DNA from: Methanosarcinales archaeon
GTDB lineage: Archaea; Halobacteriota; Syntropharchaeia; Alkanophagales; Methanospirareceae
Direction of reading: 5' to 3'
Length of the DNA: 46,927 nt
Assembly (NCBI GenBank): GCA_025464585.1
Contig: JAODGL010000092.1
Coordinates: forward strand, 1-46,927
Positions 13,041 through 20,508 of this stretch are shown one piece after another. How positions within the stretch are numbered: the first letter of the stretch is position 1; every line of letters begins with the position of its first letter. Below the pieces are notes generated by a model. That model did not search any database. It saw only the letters and a program-made list of their open reading frames with translations, and was not told the origin of the DNA. The position numbers were made by a program, and so were the translations under genes.

Positions 13041-14084
13041 ATGCCCAGGTACAACATCAACTGGAACATTACGCGCGAGTGTAATCTGCGCTGTAAACAC
13101 TGCTACTACGAAGCAGGCACGTCGTTAGAGGATGAGCTCAGCACAGATGAATCCCTTGCACTCATAGACGAAATAGCGAACGTATTTGGCGACAAAGCGA
13201 GCATCACATTTGGCGGTGGAGAAGCATTACTGAGAAAGGACTTATTTGACCTCCTTTCTTATGGTAAAGAGCGAGGTTTGCACCTCGTGCTCGCATCAAA
13301 CGGAACATTGCTCAACGAAGAAGTCGCTGCTCGTTTAAAAAACGTGGGTGTCGAAGATGTCATAATACCAATTGACGGCACTCAAAAGACACATGACGCA
13401 ATAAGAGGAGAAGGCGTCTTTGAGAAGGCGACCAAAAGCGCAAGAGCGGTTAGAAATGCGGGATTGAGCCTGGTGATTGACCCCTGTATAATGAAACAGA
13501 ACGAAGGAGAGATTGGGAAGATTATTGACATAGCTGAGAATCTGGGTGCGAGGCAGTGCAGGTTCTTTCATTACGTCTCGATGGGCAGGGGAAAGGAAGT
13601 AATGCCAGATAGTGAACTCGGCAGTGTCCAATACGCAGAAAACATGATGCAGCTATATGAAGAACAGAACAAAAGAAGAGCACTCGAAATCTGCACGACT
13701 CAGGCATGCCAGTACTGGGTGGTACTGAAAAGGAAAGAAGAAGAAGGGCTCTTCGTTCCCGATTTCTTTTATACCGAGACTCCCGGCTGTCGAGCTGCTA
13801 TCGGTATGCTTTCTATCAAGCCGAATGGCGATGTCGTGCCGTGTCCGCTGTTAGAAGTAAAAGCAGGAAATGTCCGTGAGATGAGTCTTCGTGAGTTACT
13901 GAACTCGAAAGTCTTTCTTGAACTGAGAAATCGTGAGGTGAAGGGCAAGTGTGCAGAGTGCAAATATAAAGATATTTGTGGTGGATGCCGTGTAAGGGCA
14001 TATCTCCATTCCGGCGATTATATGGCAGAAGACCCTTTATGCAGCGAGTTCTTTTTTGAAAGAGCATTCTTGAATAGCGAATAG
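13041..14084 (+). CDS. Radical SAM enzyme with C-terminal SPASM domain (AhbD/NirJ-like)
   Basis: 347 aa. CNLRCKHC (CX3CX2C) at the N-terminus, GGEALL, C-terminal Cys cluster (GCRAA..VVPCP..CAECKYKDICGGCRVRA..DPLC). Starts 6 nt after the HMGL-like gene. Confidence 0.85.
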   Translation: MPRYNINWNITRECNLRCKHCYYEAGTSLEDELSTDESLALIDEIANVFGDKASITFGGGEALLRKDLFDLLSYGKERGLHLVLASNGTLLNEEVAARLKNVGVEDVIIPIDGTQKTHDAIRGEGVFEKATKSARAVRNAGLSLVIDPCIMKQNEGEIGKIIDIAENLGARQCRFFHYVSMGRGKEVMPDSELGSVQYAENMMQLYEEQNKRRALEICTTQACQYWVVLKRKEEEGLFVPDFFYTETPGCRAAIGMLSIKPNGDVVPCPLLEVKAGNVREMSLRELLNSKVFLELRNREVKGKCAECKYKDICGGCRVRAYLHSGDYMAEDPLCSEFFFERAFLNSE

Positions 14085-14090
14085 CGTAAC

Positions 14091-14105
14091 TTATATATTT
14101 AAATA
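14091..14105 (+). promoter_or_regulatory. TATA-box-like element (TTATATATTTAAATA) upstream of the three-gene tubulin-like module
   Basis: Lies about 60-70 nt upstream of the ATG at 14164. A purine-rich GAGAGAGAGG Shine-Dalgarno-like stretch sits at 14146-14155. Confidence 0.3.
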
Positions 14106-14163
14106 CTCCGAAATTTAATAACTCATAGAAATAAATATTTTAAAAGAGAGAGAGGTATCAGAT

Positions 14164-14604
14164 ATGGAACCCTCGAGCATAGGGATATTGATTATTGCTA
14201 TATTGCTAATCATAGAAGTAGTGGTGATGCTGACAAAGTTAAAAGTGGACAAGATGCTTCTTCTTATGCCCGTCATCGGTGTAATATTCGCCGTTATCTC
14301 CTTTGCGTTGAATGAATACCGGGATAAGATTCTTTCCTCTTTATCTGATTCTGCTTCTTACGCCGTGATATATATTACAATAGCAGTAGGAGTTGTATTT
14401 GGATTATTTGGTGTCTCAGTGTGGTTCAAAGGAGAGAAAGAAGCAAGAAGGCTTGCTTCAGCGGCAAAAAGCATAGATAGCACGGTTGCGGGGATTGAAA
14501 GCGATATAAGAGGGAGCGGGATGGAATTAGAGCATTTTGATGATGAGATGAGCGGTATTAAAAAGAAGGTAGAAGATTACGAATCGAAAGAGAAGGGGGT
14601 ATAA
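14164..14604 (+). CDS. Small polytopic membrane protein (3 TM helices) with a charged helical C-terminal tail
   Basis: 146 aa. Hydrophobic segments at about residues 5-24, 31-49 and 65-87, followed by KGEKEARRLASAAKSIDSTVAGIESDIRGSGMELEHFDDEMSGIKKKVEDYESKEKGV. First gene of the module. No homology recognised. Confidence 0.6.
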   Translation: MEPSSIGILIIAILLIIEVVVMLTKLKVDKMLLLMPVIGVIFAVISFALNEYRDKILSSLSDSASYAVIYITIAVGVVFGLFGVSVWFKGEKEARRLASAAKSIDSTVAGIESDIRGSGMELEHFDDEMSGIKKKVEDYESKEKGV

Positions 14605-14654
14605 ACATGAAAATCAAGGTATTGATCAATTACAGGAGGCATGTTGTTTGAGGT

Positions 14655-17357
14655 ATGGAAAAAGGAGAAGATACGGTAAATCGGATTGTAATTGGCATTG
14701 GGGGGCAGGGAAGTATTATTGTAAATAATATATTGCGAATGCTGAAGTTCAAAACAGGGAAAGTGCCGAAGAACGAGGAGTTCCTGATTATAGATACTGA
14801 CCAGGCATCTGCAAACGCATGCAGCGAAGTAGAAGAGAGAAAAAAGATAATTCTCAACAGACCGGATACGATTTTGATGCGGAACACCAATAGATGGCTT
14901 CCTGACCCTTATCTCTCGGCTGCCGGTGCTGGATGTGGACAACATCGAATATATGGCAGAGCGATGTACAATGTGCATCGAGAGAGGATATTCAGTGCGA
15001 TAGGTTCTTCGGCGTCAGAATTGAGAAACAGAACAGGAGGTAAGGACTTTTTCATTCTGATGGTGTGCGCATTCGGGGGGGGAACGGGGTCGAGTATGCT
15101 CCTCGATGTTGCCATTGACATACGCGATTGGATATCGAAACAGTTTGGGTCTGAGCCGGTGATGTTTGGAATTGGAATTCTACCCTCGAGCAAAGAATCC
15201 GTGCTTCCTACGGGTAATGCCCTCGGTGCGATGAAAGAACTTCATTTCCTTATGTCCCATACTGAAGACATCATAATAGATGACAAGAATTATTCTAATC
15301 CATTCAAATTATTCTTCCTTTTAGGCAGAGACCTTCAAGGGCAGAACCGGGATGAGGAACTGGAAAGGGCGATACCGAGGTTCCTTCTCGACCTCGGATT
15401 CCTGCCTGGTGGAACGGTAGAAACGAAAGGTAAGTGGCTCGACCTCAATGACCTTCAGAACAGAGCGAGGGGTTACGAAAACAGGTTTGATTCCCTTGGT
15501 TACTACGAGTGCGTTTTTCCTACTGAGAAATTGTTTTTGTACTATGATATTGAGGATGAGATACCGCGGGTAAGACAGCGATTGGTAGAGATAGAGGCAA
15601 AAATATCGGATATAAGGGGGAAAATAGACTCACAAAGGGGGGAATTGGAAAGGTTTGAGGGGAGGATAAAGGACGTTCAGCGAGAGATAGATAGTTACGA
15701 ATCGTCAGCAGGAATGTTTTCTCACGTGAATGCTGCTTTAACTGCGGATGCAAAGGCGAAACTGGATAGGGCGAGGAAGAAATTATCTGGCTTGAAGGAG
15801 GAGGTGTACGACCTTGAGATAAGGGCAAGCGACGCAGAGGAGGAGAAAAGACTGGCAGAGCGTAATTTAGAACGTCTTGAAGCGCTTAAGAACAAGCTCT
15901 TCCGGGAGATAACTTCGCCGCTGAACACCAGGAGTTATCACCAGATAGAACTATCAGAAGAGGAGATAAGAAGCTTGAAGCGAAGCAGAGAAGACCTGAA
16001 AAATCTTTCCTTCTTTGAGATTATGAAAAAACTCGACCGTGAAGAAGAGTACTTCCGGTGGACGCATTCACCGATTAATGAAGGCGACATCATATTCAAT
16101 CCGATGGTGAACTACCGTCATTCGATAGGGAATGCCATGGAGTCAAAATATATAGACATCCTTCATGATTACGGATTCCTGTCGCTGGATACACAGGGGA
16201 ACGTGGTGAACGAGGAGGAGAAGTTCGGGCACTTCATCGCGGTGTTGAGCACAAGGGCGGACAATTTTGATGACGCGAGGCTTGGCGGGGGGGCATTTAA
16301 GAGCATGGTGACAGAAAGATTTACAAAGGATGCAGACGTCCTGAAACTGGATACACCAGCACGTGCACACAGCTTTGCCATGTACACGCTTATGATTGGC
16401 GTTCAACCATGGGCGCCTGGTCCGGGTCTTCCGCCACGACTGCGTGAATTGGAATGGCTTGAGCGTGCGTATAATGCGAGCGATTTCTCTAAACTGCCGC
16501 GGCACCATTCCCTTTTCTACGGAACCCCAAAGCCATTCTCAATCATCACTGGGATACCATACATACCGGGTGCAGAGGAAAAAAACAGGGATATGGTAAC
16601 GAATTACTGGAAGGATTACGAGATAATTGAGCCTGAAGCAATATGGAACAATGTCCCCATCGTGCTTGCACAGTGTCTGAAGATGTTCGATGATTTACTA
16701 ACGGGTCTGGATATGGCAGAGGACATAAAAAATGTCCGAATCCCGGACCCGGATAGCTACTCAATAGCAAATCTTACAATGCTGGTTCACGGGCTTGAAA
16801 ACGCGAGTAAAAGCATGGCAAAGGTGACGCGATGGACCAGAGAGGCAGAGAGAGGATTTACGCTATTGAAAAACGAGCTTGATGAATTGATATTTAAATT
16901 AAAAGGGATGGAGGGGGTACCATCAAAAGATAAAGCAGCGAAAATGTTGAGGATGATAGATGACTCATCAAGAAATATGGAGATATTGCTTGACCGGATT
17001 GAAGACCTATCGAACAGGTTTGGTAATGATATAAAATCAGTCATAGAAAAAGCGATGGTTTTCTTAGGCAGAATACCTTCTGAAGAGACCACCTCAAGCG
17101 TGATAAGACATCTAACGAAGGCAGAATCAGAGATTTCGAAGCTAAGAGAAGACAGTATGAAGGCGGCAAAGGGGATAAAAGAGATGGGCGGACCACTCGC
17201 AGCGATGTTATCCTCGCTGAAAGAATTGAAAAAGATAACGGAATCAGGTGAATCAGAAGCTGAGGCAGAAGCTGGTGCGGAGAGGAAAGAGAAGATGAAG
17301 AATGTGGAGCTGCCTGATTTATCACTGAATATTGGAAGGGGAGAAGAAGGAGAATGA
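14655..17357 (+). CDS. Tubulin/FtsZ-superfamily GTPase domain protein with long coiled-coil C-terminal extension
   Basis: 900 aa. T1 loop VIGIGGQGS (residues 12-20), LIIDTD, GAGCGQHRIYGRA, tubulin signature AFGGGTGSS (residues 139-147, nt 15075-15095 for GGGTGSS), GIGILPSSKES..GNALGAMKEL, T7-like WLDLNDL (nt 15435-15455). Residues about 300-445 and 705-860 are heptad-like and E/K/R-rich. Confidence 0.85.
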   Translation: MEKGEDTVNRIVIGIGGQGSIIVNNILRMLKFKTGKVPKNEEFLIIDTDQASANACSEVEERKKIILNRPDTILMRNTNRWLPDPYLSAAGAGCGQHRIYGRAMYNVHRERIFSAIGSSASELRNRTGGKDFFILMVCAFGGGTGSSMLLDVAIDIRDWISKQFGSEPVMFGIGILPSSKESVLPTGNALGAMKELHFLMSHTEDIIIDDKNYSNPFKLFFLLGRDLQGQNRDEELERAIPRFLLDLGFLPGGTVETKGKWLDLNDLQNRARGYENRFDSLGYYECVFPTEKLFLYYDIEDEIPRVRQRLVEIEAKISDIRGKIDSQRGELERFEGRIKDVQREIDSYESSAGMFSHVNAALTADAKAKLDRARKKLSGLKEEVYDLEIRASDAEEEKRLAERNLERLEALKNKLFREITSPLNTRSYHQIELSEEEIRSLKRSREDLKNLSFFEIMKKLDREEEYFRWTHSPINEGDIIFNPMVNYRHSIGNAMESKYIDILHDYGFLSLDTQGNVVNEEEKFGHFIAVLSTRADNFDDARLGGGAFKSMVTERFTKDADVLKLDTPARAHSFAMYTLMIGVQPWAPGPGLPPRLRELEWLERAYNASDFSKLPRHHSLFYGTPKPFSIITGIPYIPGAEEKNRDMVTNYWKDYEIIEPEAIWNNVPIVLAQCLKMFDDLLTGLDMAEDIKNVRIPDPDSYSIANLTMLVHGLENASKSMAKVTRWTREAERGFTLLKNELDELIFKLKGMEGVPSKDKAAKMLRMIDDSSRNMEILLDRIEDLSNRFGNDIKSVIEKAMVFLGRIPSEETTSSVIRHLTKAESEISKLREDSMKAAKGIKEMGGPLAAMLSSLKELKKITESGESEAEAEAGAERKEKMKNVELPDLSLNIGRGEEGE

Positions 17358-18409
17358 GACGTTTATTTTATGCTTCACTTGTTGTTCTGGTACTCGCACT
17401 ATTAATTTTATCCGCAGGAATTGCATCAGCTCAGCAGGATGTGCTGAGGCTGAATGCAGACAAATCATATGTCATCAATTTAGATACCGGTGGTACTAAG
17501 ACATACTATATAGATTTTTTGAATACCGACCAATTTGAGGGCCATAAACTCGAATTCACCATTTATGTGAACAAGGTCGAGAAGGCATATATTCCGGATG
17601 AATATGTGTTGAAACTGGAGACAAACATGGAGAATCCGGAATGGAAGTTCGGTGATGAGATTCTCTCTGCGGCAGAGTGGATAGTGTGGAAGGGGAAGGA
17701 GGAGCATGAGTATGAGCGCATGACAATCTTAGTAACAGGGGAGGTCCCAAAGCCAATAATTCCGGTAGAAGAGCCGGGATTCGAGGCATACAAAGAAACA
17801 AAAGGAATTGGAAAGCGAGAAGTGTATGTCAAATTAACGGTGGGAACGACGAAGGATGGAGCGACATTAGAGAGGATTATACAGCCGTTGGAGCCTTCAA
17901 TGAAGTTCTTCTCGACGAGTGAAGGGATTCAGGATGCGAAGACCGAAATGGATAAAAATTTGGAAGAGGCAAGGGGTAAGATTGGTGGAACCGATTTGGA
18001 AGAGGATATACGCAAGCTCTATGAAGGAGGGCATCCGGGTTGGGCATCAAAGTTATCAGAACATTATAAGGAGCTATCTGTCGCGGCTGAGCCGCCTCCT
18101 ATCACTCTTTATGTCATCCTGTCGGTGATATTAGGTTTGATACTGGGTTCGGCATTCGTATATGTGTATGTATCAAGAGGAGGAGGAAAAGGAGTGGACG
18201 TGAGTCAGATTTCAGCGGAGTTGGATGAGACTTCGGGTCGAATAGAGGAGAAATCGAGTTCAATCAATGCAATATCAACGCGGTTTGCGAGGAGTGAGGA
18301 TGAAGAGAAGAGGGGTGTTGCAAGAGAGCTGATACGGATAAGGGCGAGTTTGAATGAGATTTCGAATGAGATAAGGACGATTGCAGATAGGATTAAGGGT
18401 TCACGGTAA
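17354..18409 (+). CDS. Bitopic membrane protein: signal peptide, ~220-aa extracellular domain, TM helix, cytoplasmic coiled-coil tail
   Basis: 351 aa. MRRLFYASLVVLVLALLILSAGIASA|QQ signal-like N-terminus. TM at residues 249-273 (nt 18098-18172). C-terminal SQISAELDETSGRIEEK...ARELIRIRASLNEISNEIRTIADRIKG. ATGA overlap with the stop of the 900-aa gene. Confidence 0.8.
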   Translation: MRRLFYASLVVLVLALLILSAGIASAQQDVLRLNADKSYVINLDTGGTKTYYIDFLNTDQFEGHKLEFTIYVNKVEKAYIPDEYVLKLETNMENPEWKFGDEILSAAEWIVWKGKEEHEYERMTILVTGEVPKPIIPVEEPGFEAYKETKGIGKREVYVKLTVGTTKDGATLERIIQPLEPSMKFFSTSEGIQDAKTEMDKNLEEARGKIGGTDLEEDIRKLYEGGHPGWASKLSEHYKELSVAAEPPPITLYVILSVILGLILGSAFVYVYVSRGGGKGVDVSQISAELDETSGRIEEKSSSINAISTRFARSEDEEKRGVARELIRIRASLNEISNEIRTIADRIKGSR

Positions 18410-18632
18410 ACCCGTTCTGATTTATTGAGTCATTAAAACAGATAAGAGTGGATATAAGAAGCTCTAAAGAAAAATTGGGTAACTTTTAACCCCCGACGAT
18501 AAACTTGATGTTTGTTTGACTGTTCTTAAACAACTAGAATCACAAATTAGAGCGGACTATACAGAATACATCAATGTAGGCGATTATTCAGACCAAGAAT
18601 TTGGCGTTTGGGTCATATAACACGGAAGGATG

Positions 18633-19734: not shown

Positions 19735-20508
19735 TTAAACAATCTGTTTCACTATCCTTCTCACAGCAGCAACAGAGGGTGCATCGTCGGGTAAATTCAC
19801 AATTGGGATGCCTTTTAAGTCATATTCCGGGATTAACGGATCAAAAGGTACTATTTCCTCTATTTCAAGGTCATGTTTCTTCGCTTCTTCTATTATCAGC
19901 TCCTCACTGCCCTCCGGTATCTTATTCGCTACATTCATCATCTTCTTCACGTCAGCATCTATCTCCTCTGCAACCTTTCTTAGCCGCAATGCTGTTTTCA
20001 TGCTCTTCACTGTTGTATCCAGCACCACAAGCATGACATCCACGTCCCTCGTGGTTCTTCTGCTGAGATGCTCCAGACCTGCTTCGCAATCTATCACCGT
20101 GTAATCGTAGTTCTTGGTCAACGTATCGAGGATCATTCTTATTATATGATTTACCGGGCAGTAGCAACCCGGTCCCTCAGGGCGCCCCATAACCAGCAGG
20201 TCATACTGGTCCTCCTCCACTATTATCTCAGCTATTTTACCCTCAAATTCTGACCTCACGTCTAATGTCACGTCCCGATGCTTGTCTTCCAGCAAACTCT
20301 CTCTTATATCGCCTGTGGTCTTATCATAGGATATACCGAGTGCATCAGGCAAATTTGAATCCGCGTCTGCATCTATGGCTAAAATGCAGATGTCGTCTTG
20401 GGCTTTATACTTCAGTATTTCCCTGATTAACAGAGCTGCGATAGCTGTTTTCCCGGTACCACCTTTGCCAGATACGCTTACTACTTTGCCCTTTCTCATA
20501 AGATTCAC
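19735..20508 (-). CDS. cooC: CooC/AcsF-type nickel-insertion ATPase (MinD/ParA family) for CO dehydrogenase/acetyl-CoA synthase maturation
   Basis: 257 aa. Deviant Walker A SGKGGTGKT and the CooC-specific GCYCPVNH (CxC nickel site). Confidence 0.8.
   Translation of the reverse strand: MNLMRKGKVVSVSGKGGTGKTAIAALLIREILKYKAQDDICILAIDADADSNLPDALGISYDKTTGDIRESLLEDKHRDVTLDVRSEFEGKIAEIIVEEDQYDLLVMGRPEGPGCYCPVNHIIRMILDTLTKNYDYTVIDCEAGLEHLSRRTTRDVDVMLVVLDTTVKSMKTALRLRKVAEEIDADVKKMMNVANKIPEGSEELIIEEAKKHDLEIEEIVPFDPLIPEYDLKGIPIVNLPDDAPSVAAVRRIVKQIV

Follow-up and report, generated by a model that had tools for sequence, protein, structure and literature searches.

The FtsZ-like 1 (FtsZl1) family of Makarova & Koonin (2010; PMC2875224), which corresponds to Tubulin_2 in Pfam, belongs to the most divergent branches of the tubulin superfamily. 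Its members occur widely among bacteria and archaea, and the literature searched holds no experimentally characterized one. The two functions proposed for the family, membrane remodelling and immune conflict, are mutually incompatible. The 2010 study predicted membrane-associated FtsZl1 complexes that remodel membranes and noted a small membrane protein (A2, e.g. MA2710) encoded 5′ of the archaeal genes, which sit among genes for membrane proteins. The published archaeal operon runs A2, FtsZl1, a membrane-associated P-loop GTPase and A1—a mixed alpha/beta protein of 408–821 residues—and bacterial FtsZl1 operons add vWA, OmpA and kinase genes (PMC2875224). Kaur, Burroughs, Iyer & Aravind (2020; PMC7159879) proposed instead that bacterial tubulin/coiled-coil/vWA/GTPase loci are conflict systems. 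Bacterial FtsZl1 loci are large and heterogeneous. Here we describe a compact archaeal form consisting of three genes (g1, g2 and g3, together the trio) at positions 14164–18409 on the + strand of contig JAODGL010000092.1, of which 46,927 nt—referred to as the window—were analysed. The window comes from an ANME-1 (Methanophagales) archaeon.

The three open reading frames (ORFs) encode a 146-residue membrane protein with three transmembrane (TM) segments and a charged helical tail (g1, 14164–14604), a 900-residue FtsZl1/Tubulin_2 protein (g2, 14655–17357) and a 351-residue type I membrane protein (g3, 17354–18409). The original prediction, made from the DNA letters, had identified the same ORFs at these positions and on this strand, and its reading of the middle product as a tubulin-superfamily GTPase with coiled coils is borne out by the PF13809 match and the structural model described below. 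We find that the trio is a conserved, co-oriented unit that is probably co-translated, and we favour, with moderate confidence, the interpretation that it is an operon whose FtsZl1 product forms a GTP-dependent polymer, tethered to the membrane and linked to the envelope. The functional idea put forward in the original prediction is essentially that of 2010 for the FtsZl1 family, and the accompanying statement that no archaeal system of this kind had been described was too strong: the family was known, an ANME-1 orthologue was part of the 2010 alignment and membrane complexes had already been predicted. What appears to be new relative to the literature searched is the partnership with g1 and g3 and its conservation in multiple lineages, the rarity and architecture of g3, and the proposed split of the tubulin fold.

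Family membership and likeness to described systems

Judged by its sequence, g2 is a member of the FtsZl1 family, as all four defining features that were tested are present: a match to PF13809 (Tubulin_2; 73.6 bits with a cut-off of 27, E 2.4e-20, residues 11–238), a GGGTGSS loop, a coiled coil together with an alpha-helical C-terminal domain, and orthology to a sequence on the founding list of the family. The match to PF00091 (Tubulin; residues 11–196) reaches 26.3 bits and stays under the cut-off of 33. Homologues of g2 numbered 81, and PF13809 is present in all full-length ones. Identity to g2 is 74–95% for homologues from ANME-1 metagenome-assembled genomes (MAGs), 64–66% for Syntrophoarchaeum, about 31–38% for loci of ANME-2, Methanoperedens and Nanoarchaeia, and 30–35% for Altiarchaeales, Thermoplasmatota and other archaea; viral contigs and plasmids yielded no relatives of g2. 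The supplementary FtsZl1 alignment of 2010 includes GI 268325165 ("uncultured archaeon"; PMC2875224), an ANME-1 orthologue whose N-terminal blocks TVNRVAIGIGGQGSSIVNNILRTL...RNEEFLIIDTDP are nearly identical to TVNRIVIGIGGQGSIIVNNILRML...KNEEFLIIDTDQ of g2, so both the family and the orthologous group of g2 are already on record. In that study the sequence groups with Mhun_0728 of Methanospirillum, apart from the clade of Methanosarcina, Pyrococcus and haloarchaea, and its gene neighbourhood was not tabulated (PMC2875224). Public databases label orthologues of g2 as "Tubulin-like protein CetZ", as "Chromosome partition protein Smc" or as hypothetical. The domain evidence does not support the first two labels, "CetZ" being an over-call.

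With the FtsZl1 proteins of 2010, g2 shares the FtsZ-like GTPase domain with its GGGTGS motif, the extended coiled coil, the alpha-helical C-terminal domain and the proposed role in a membrane-associated remodelling complex; in g2 an extra alpha/beta region (residues 421–659) lies between the coiled coil and the helical domain. Compared by description only, g1 is like A2 in position and general character, both being small membrane proteins encoded 5′ of FtsZl1, whereas g3 with its 351 residues, likewise compared by description only, is smaller than A1 (408–821 residues). Where the published archaeal operon type has a GTPase gene downstream of FtsZl1, the trio instead has g3, which overlaps g2 by 4 nt; the trio includes no second GTPase, vWA protein or kinase. 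No GTPase was found 3′ of g2 in the ANME-1, ANME-2, Altiarchaeales or Nanoarchaeia loci examined.

CetZ is the best structural match of g2 (4b46 and 3zid; E 2e-9 to 1e-8) and is an archaeal tubulin-superfamily protein with a membrane or envelope role, as proposed for g2. However, CetZ has about 360–400 residues and g2 has 900, adding a 130-residue hairpin and a 200-residue helical domain; the identity in the structural alignment is about 10%, and g2 lies below the PF00091 cut-off, so it does not qualify as a CetZ. The working model of a polymer held at the membrane by dedicated proteins is the same as for FtsZ with FtsA, ZipA and SepF and for MreB–RodZ. The C-terminal peptide of FtsZ recruits membrane anchors, and its arrangement of a variable linker followed by a conserved peptide resembles the end of g2 in ANME-1. 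RodZ and g3 are both single-pass proteins that join a cytoplasmic to an extracytoplasmic domain. Neither g1 nor g3 is homologous to FtsA, ZipA, SepF or RodZ, however; the putative anchors of the trio share its operon and are probably coupled in translation, and nothing points to a function in division or elongation. Conflict systems of the GAP1-N2 type (PMC7159879) also place an FtsZl1-type tubulin fused to a coiled coil or an alpha-helical C-terminal domain beside membrane proteins, but these systems, found mostly in firmicutes and actinobacteria, comprise GAP1/DO-GTPases, vWA proteins, proteins with fibronectin type III (FNIII) repeats and, in the DO-GTPase systems, HSP70, none of which occurs at the trio. 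TubZ and PhuZ, which are among the structural hits, are divergent prokaryotic tubulins with C-terminal extensions as g2 is, while the trio is chromosomal, has membrane partners in place of TubR or a centromere partner, and gave no plasmid or viral homologues. A TubZ system was rejected as an assignment, since neither an adjacent DNA-binding adaptor nor a plasmid or phage location was found.

Predicted fold of g2 and architecture of its membrane partners

The GTPase domain of g2 and the start of the second tubulin domain (residues 9–289; 14679–15521, + strand, as are all features of the trio) are supported by invariant columns, the PF00091 match and the order of secondary-structure elements in the model. 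The nucleotide loops T1 (GIGGQGS, residues 14–20), T3 (GAG, 91–93) and T4 (GGGTGSS, 141–147) are present, and G14, G16, G17, G19, G91, G93, G141–G145, E181, N188, D263 and D266 are invariant in 34 homologues down to 28% identity. The last two residues belong to WLDLNDL (residues 261–267), a candidate T7/H8 motif; FtsZ carries NxDxxD at the T7/H8 position. An AlphaFold2 model built on 34 homologues (pLDDT 86, pTM 0.78) begins with a Rossmann-like GTPase domain (residues 9–246), followed by a loop, a short helix (264–271) and a strand (278–287). After this strand the model places an antiparallel coiled-coil hairpin (residues 290–420; 15522–15914) with helices of about 60 residues each (290–350 and 356–420), for which profile searches gave weak SMC-type and other coiled-coil matches. 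The alpha/beta region that follows (residues 421–659; 15915–16631) is predicted from the model and Foldseek to complete the tubulin/FtsZ fold's C-terminal domain, and its conservation is 84% within ANME-1 and 34% to distant relatives. A C-terminal domain of five long helices (residues 660–865; 16632–17249), which in the model extend over 660–879, leads to a disordered acidic linker (residues 866–900; 17250–17354; pLDDT < 50) with the C-terminal peptide ELPDLSL (residues 885–891; 17307–17327). Despite the variable linker, ELP[DE]LS occurs in 45 of 45 distinct full-length ANME-1 sequences of g2; it is absent outside ANME-1.

A Foldseek search of the g2 model against the Protein Data Bank (PDB) returned CetZ1 (4b46) as the best hit (E 2e-9, 606 columns; TM-score 0.70 when normalised to the 330 residues of this target), followed by CetZ 3zid (E up to 1e-8), tubulins, FtsZ, TubZ and BtubA. 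The alignments to CetZ1, FtsZ, TubZ and tubulin extend over 590–710 columns, versus about 300 columns and TM-scores of 0.4–0.5 for hits in the same list that are limited to the N-terminal domain. The longer alignments must therefore cross the hairpin and use residues 421 to about 600 as second tubulin domain. On this basis the model predicts that g2 has both tubulin domains, split by a hairpin of about 130 residues and followed by the five-helix domain; the hairpin would be an insertion after strand S7 of the tubulin fold, and WLDLNDL would occupy the T7/H8 position with D263 and D266 as T7-type acidic residues. Searched by sequence against solved structures, the g2 profile gave coiled-coil matches only, plus a weak CetZ hit at the GGGTGS region. 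Makarova & Koonin could not identify T6–H7 and the C-terminal domain of FtsZl1 (PMC2875224), and the model, as a prediction, would revise the view of 2010 that the family lacks the second tubulin domain and a T7-like motif.

In g1, hydropathy and charge analysis places hydrophobic segments at residues 6–24, 31–49 and 68–86. The K-rich loop at residues 25–30 points to an N-out/C-in orientation, which makes the charged helical tail of 59 residues (88–146; 14425–14601) cytoplasmic according to the positive-inside analysis. No match to g1 was found in Pfam, NCBIfam, PADLOC or, by sequence, the PDB, and its homologues were found only in ANME-1 and Syntrophoarchaeum, always directly 5′ of g2. Some ANME-1 loci (L070, L073) carry a tandem second g1-like gene 5′ of g1, and some g1-like proteins (P0309, P0311) have an N-terminal zinc-ribbon domain (PF13240/PF13248).

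The g3 protein starts with a signal peptide ending in ASA|QQ (residues 1–26, by hydropathy), followed in the model by an Ig-like beta sandwich (residues 31–188, pLDDT 78) and a three-helix subdomain with an almost invariant GHPGWA (residues 190–244). A TM helix assigned by hydropathy (residues ~249–273; 18098–18172), after which comes SRGGGK, connects the ectodomain to a cytoplasmic tail of 78 residues (274–351; 18173–18406) that topology and model describe as helix-turn-helix. These assignments agree with the topology first suggested for both membrane proteins—three TM segments and a tail in g1, a signal peptide, one TM segment and a tail in g3, with both tails in the cytoplasm—when the topology check was run. 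The ectodomain of g3 had been called beta-rich, which is accurate for the sandwich and leaves out the three-helix subdomain. Foldseek matched the g3 model to generic Ig-like folds only, with RhoGDI best (E ~1e-4), and no sequence match to g3 was found in Pfam, NCBIfam, PADLOC or, by profile against solved structures, the PDB. The family is small: among 1.84 billion proteins searched exhaustively with HMMER, relatives of g3 form 35 representative clusters, of which 29 reach E <= 1e-10. The ectodomain of g3 also occurs inside giant secreted, N/S-repeat-rich and beta-helix-like proteins (P0317, 1219 residues; P0320, 835 residues; loci L086 and L087) with no FtsZl1 gene adjoining; unless these are assembly chimeras, it is a reusable cell-surface module.

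Conservation of the tails at least equals that of the rest of each protein. Within ANME-1, the g1 tail is conserved at 77.5% and its TM region at 71%, and identity in g3 is 80% for the tail, 94% for the juxtamembrane linker and 62% for the ectodomain. Such conservation would be expected of tails that bind a specific partner in the cytoplasm. The S/E/I/R-rich composition once thought to be common to both tails and the C-terminal region of g2 is found in the g3 tail (55%, 99.8th percentile of the proteins of the window) and the g1 tail (39%, 96th percentile) but does not extend to the C-terminal region of g2 (31%, 73rd percentile). The g1 tail, the g3 tail, the C-terminal domain of g2 and the S409 coiled coil were also compared as candidate related modules, and hhalign found no homology between them.

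Gene neighbourhoods, putative control elements and flanking genes

Gene neighbourhoods were compared in 49 loci of species-representative genomes and in 35 metagenome loci, the latter gathered through distant g3 relatives with a four-sequence g3 alignment. About 45 loci of ANME-1 and Syntrophoarchaeum preserve the order g1–g2–g3. Every locus of these two groups with room for the three genes shows it. A g3 homologue lies directly 3′ of g2 in Altiarchaeales (L003), Methanoperedens (L050), ANME-2 (L051) and Nanoarchaeia (L053), and likewise in every informative metagenome locus, including the distant L055–L059 and L082. The g3-like sequences found away from a g2 gene are contig-truncated cases, the two giant beta-helix fusions and one 476-residue ORF on a short contig (L081). 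The co-localization of the three genes expected by the original prediction was thus seen in every genome examined.

In distant lineages (L003, L051, L055, L082) the product encoded 5′ of g2 is again a membrane protein with several TM segments that ends in a charged, helical tail (about 55–60 residues): Alt_213 in Altiarchaeales and proteins of 207 residues in ANME-2, 174 residues in L055 and 219 residues in L082. These proteins are analogues of g1 in position and architecture only. The recurrence of this pattern in distant loci makes "tailed membrane protein, FtsZl1, tailed membrane protein" a conserved theme. A Thermoplasmatota MAG (L004:1037–4756) has a small TM protein 5′ of FtsZl1 and, replacing g3 on the 3′ side, two 95-residue helical-tail proteins, one with a clear TM helix and the other with a weakly hydrophobic N-terminus only; both look like anchors that have no ectodomain. 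Two genes 5′ of FtsZl1 in L055 (3–1151), and cut by the contig start, is a coiled-coil protein that ends in an SMC/Rad50-like ABC signature (LSQGTKDQL ... LLFDESF). In an ANME-2 MAG (L051:2770–11656) the trio adjoins two intact PF00091 genes (404 and 424 residues) and two coiled-coil proteins with signal or TM segments, which together form a multi-tubulin island.

Where ANME-1 and Syntrophoarchaeum loci extend far enough upstream, most of them carry a further pair of genes in the same orientation directly 5′ of g1. Such five-gene clusters include L010:5305–7517, L001:3392–5520 and about 25 other loci of the two groups; both extra genes are absent from the window. One encodes a tubulin-like protein of about 300 residues that passes PF00091 in Syntrophoarchaeum (38 bits) and has lost the GGGTG signature in ANME-1, where by its sequence it looks like a pseudo-tubulin. 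The product of the other, about 425 residues in size, combines a TM helix at its N-terminus with a long coiled coil. The trio stands by itself behind its own TATA-like element in the window, in its twin L006 and in at least two separate ANME-1 clades (L007/L072 and L027/L028/L045). Three-gene loci in several clades mark the trio as the universal core and the extra genes as lineage-specific additions. The term "self-contained", applied to the module at the outset, therefore suits the window and some ANME-1 clades but not most relatives, which have the two upstream genes.

The 5′ border of the module is marked by an AT-rich element, cttatatatttaaatactc (14090–14108, read from the sequence), with a TATA-like core, TATTTAAATACTC (14096–14108), that may act as a promoter. 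This region had been pointed out upstream of g1 before; it is present, and its core is conserved in ANME-1 loci, TATTTAAATACTC being kept about 55–70 nt 5′ of g1 in seven of them (L007, L027, L028, L031, L032, L045, L048), where the genes upstream of the trio differ or are unrelated between loci. A Shine–Dalgarno-like GAGAGGT (14150–14156) lies 7 nt 5′ of the g1 ATG, and (A)GAGGT is found at the same place in most loci compared. The spacer between g1 and g2 (14605–14654) contains GGAGG at 14635–14639 and is longer in the window (50 nt) than in most relatives (about 10 nt). At 17354–17357 an ATGA holds both the stop of g2 and the start of g3, as read in the original prediction, which took it to imply translational coupling; the 4-nt overlap is retained in nearly all related loci, including those of ANME-2, Methanoperedens and Nanoarchaeia. 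Across the g3 stop, a putative terminator hairpin is followed by a T-rich run (18397–18423). DNA similarity to ANME-1 relatives starts at 14090–14135 and stops at 18395–18412 in eight of the nine loci compared, and the ninth (L006), near-identical to the window, is collinear from 10045. The breaks of synteny in the eight loci coincide exactly with the module borders, which makes the grouping of the trio more than chance. A scan for bacterial sigma-70 promoters, a model not relevant to an archaeon, gave results at chance level, and no RNA family was found by an Rfam scan of the whole window.

The genes flanking the trio are those named in the original prediction, a radical SAM/SPASM enzyme upstream and a convergent dCMP deaminase downstream, the latter followed by UDG; the window's remaining genes are of the chromosomal housekeeping kind (glutamine synthetase, anthranilate synthase, HypF and Hdr-like genes). 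The radical SAM/SPASM gene (13041–14084) lies directly 5′ of g1, and a 35%-identical gene lies 5′ of the trio in another ANME-1 clade, adjacent in one locus (L045:2662–3849) and 2.4 kb off in the other (L027:3954–5126); the proximity may be coincidence or a loose association. A ParA/MinD-type P-loop ATPase with CbiA/AAA_31 domains and a GKGGTGKT motif is encoded on the − strand at 19735–20508, 1.3 kb downstream of the trio. None of the other loci compared has such a gene close to the trio, so the ATPase is probably unrelated to it.

Weighing the readings and their significance

In the reading that we favour, g2 would bind GTP and polymerize head to tail like other tubulin-superfamily proteins, with D263 and D266 of WLDLNDL acting as the T7 catalytic loop. 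The hairpin, the C-terminal helical domain or both would stand out from the polymer as binding sites for the g1 and g3 tails, and in ANME-1 the ELPDLSL peptide may be a docking peptide comparable to the C-terminal peptide of FtsZ. Held under the membrane by g1 and g3, the polymer would pass its position or dynamics to the g3 ectodomain beneath the S-layer, and the module would organize or remodel membrane and envelope in the manner of MreB–RodZ or of FtsZ with ZipA/SepF.

Several points weigh against this reading. Docking of the tails on g2 is pure conjecture: neither homology nor co-variation turned up, and the likeness in composition fails for g2. Polymerization of g2 is an extrapolation, because the literature search found no experimental study of FtsZl1, nor any of ANME-1 tubulins. 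When g2 is compared by hhalign with tubulin-like paralogues from related loci, only residues 129–196 align (95% probability), and the T7 region and residues 421–659 give no signal. The full-fold claim is therefore drawn from a single AlphaFold model and the summary scores of Foldseek rather than from a residue-level superposition. The membrane proteins encoded upstream of FtsZl1 in Altiarchaeales, ANME-2 and Thermoplasmatota show no homology to g1 by hhalign. Because most relatives carry the two extra upstream genes, the trio alone may fall short of a complete functional system, and any biological role assigned to it, whether in shape, envelope or vesicles, is a guess. Makarova & Koonin, too, could not align FtsZl1 past helix H5 and allowed for a non-filamentous family (PMC2875224).

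A non-filamentous function is the basis of an alternative that we consider unlikely, in which g2 is a GTP-regulated membrane scaffold or switch that forms dimers or small oligomers through its coiled coils, in dynamin or SMC style, and, together with g1 and g3, serves to fuse or divide membranes, to form vesicles or to signal across the membrane. Longitudinal contacts of the canonical type could be obstructed by the large inserted hairpin and the domain of five helices, and sequence profiles back only part of the GTPase domain. Yet the g2 model matches both domains of CetZ, FtsZ and TubZ in Foldseek, and the invariant D-x-x-D sits at the place expected of the T7 loop, which to our knowledge is needed only for hydrolysis across the polymer interface; moreover, all characterized tubulin-superfamily GTPases that we know of polymerize. 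The view that the locus serves in conflict, with g2 as a tubulin-like, NTP-dependent assembly platform triggered by viral infection and the membrane proteins as sensor and effector, appears improbable to us. It draws on the recasting of FtsZl1-type bacterial neighbourhoods as GTPase-centric conflict systems (PMC7159879) and on the Tubulin_2 genes reported from the extrachromosomal Borg elements of Methanoperedens, whose products carry added tandem-repeat regions (PMC9879509), and it would fit the differing genomic contexts of the module among ANME-1 genomes, the sharp synteny breaks at its borders and the faster evolution of the g3 ectodomain relative to the rest of g3. On the other hand, the scanned ORFs of the window and the neighbours in related loci include no vWA, GAP1/DO-GTPase, TRAFAC GTPase, HSP70 or recognized effector domain, and PADLOC gave coiled-coil noise only. 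The neighbours in the window are housekeeping genes, and viral or plasmid copies were not found. The trio occurs in about 45 species-representative genomes of ANME-1 and Syntrophoarchaeum, with g2 identities of 74–95% within ANME-1 and 66% in the Syntrophoarchaeum lineage, a pattern closer to that of a core gene than to that of a patchy defence island.

Least credible, and in our estimate very improbable, is that the trio is an accessory of FtsZ-based cell division or a DNA segregation system like that of TubZ or PhuZ, although TubZ structures are among the Foldseek hits and some databases label the orthologues "CetZ" or "Smc". No TubR-like DNA-binding partner or repeat centromere adjoins the trio, both partners being membrane proteins, plasmid or viral homologues were not found and no division genes are linked in any locus examined; Makarova & Koonin, moreover, argued from the co-occurrence of FtsZl1 with canonical FtsZ that a role in division is unlikely (PMC2875224).

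The reading of the trio as an operon for a membrane-tethered polymer can be extended, tentatively and with more doubt than confidence, to that of an ancient machine for coupling across the membrane that would be common to the archaea, with the trio as its minimal core. Here a filament with a hairpin-split tubulin fold would be tethered by co-translated membrane proteins, and g3 would pass position or force to its Ig-like domain under the S-layer, as a tubulin-based counterpart of MreB–RodZ. If true, this would assign a function to FtsZl1, which has been uncharacterized since 2010. The compact three-gene form, with its tiny dedicated g3 family and conserved overlap, makes the archaeal system tractable for reconstitution, and polymerization of g2, recruitment to membranes by the tails and the ligand of the g3 ectodomain are questions within reach. 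The predicted second tubulin domain and T7-like motif provide concrete mutants for such work. ANME-1 archaea are key uncultured methane oxidizers with an unusual rod-shaped, sheathed morphology, and given the conservation of the module in these organisms, it may bear on how their envelope is built.

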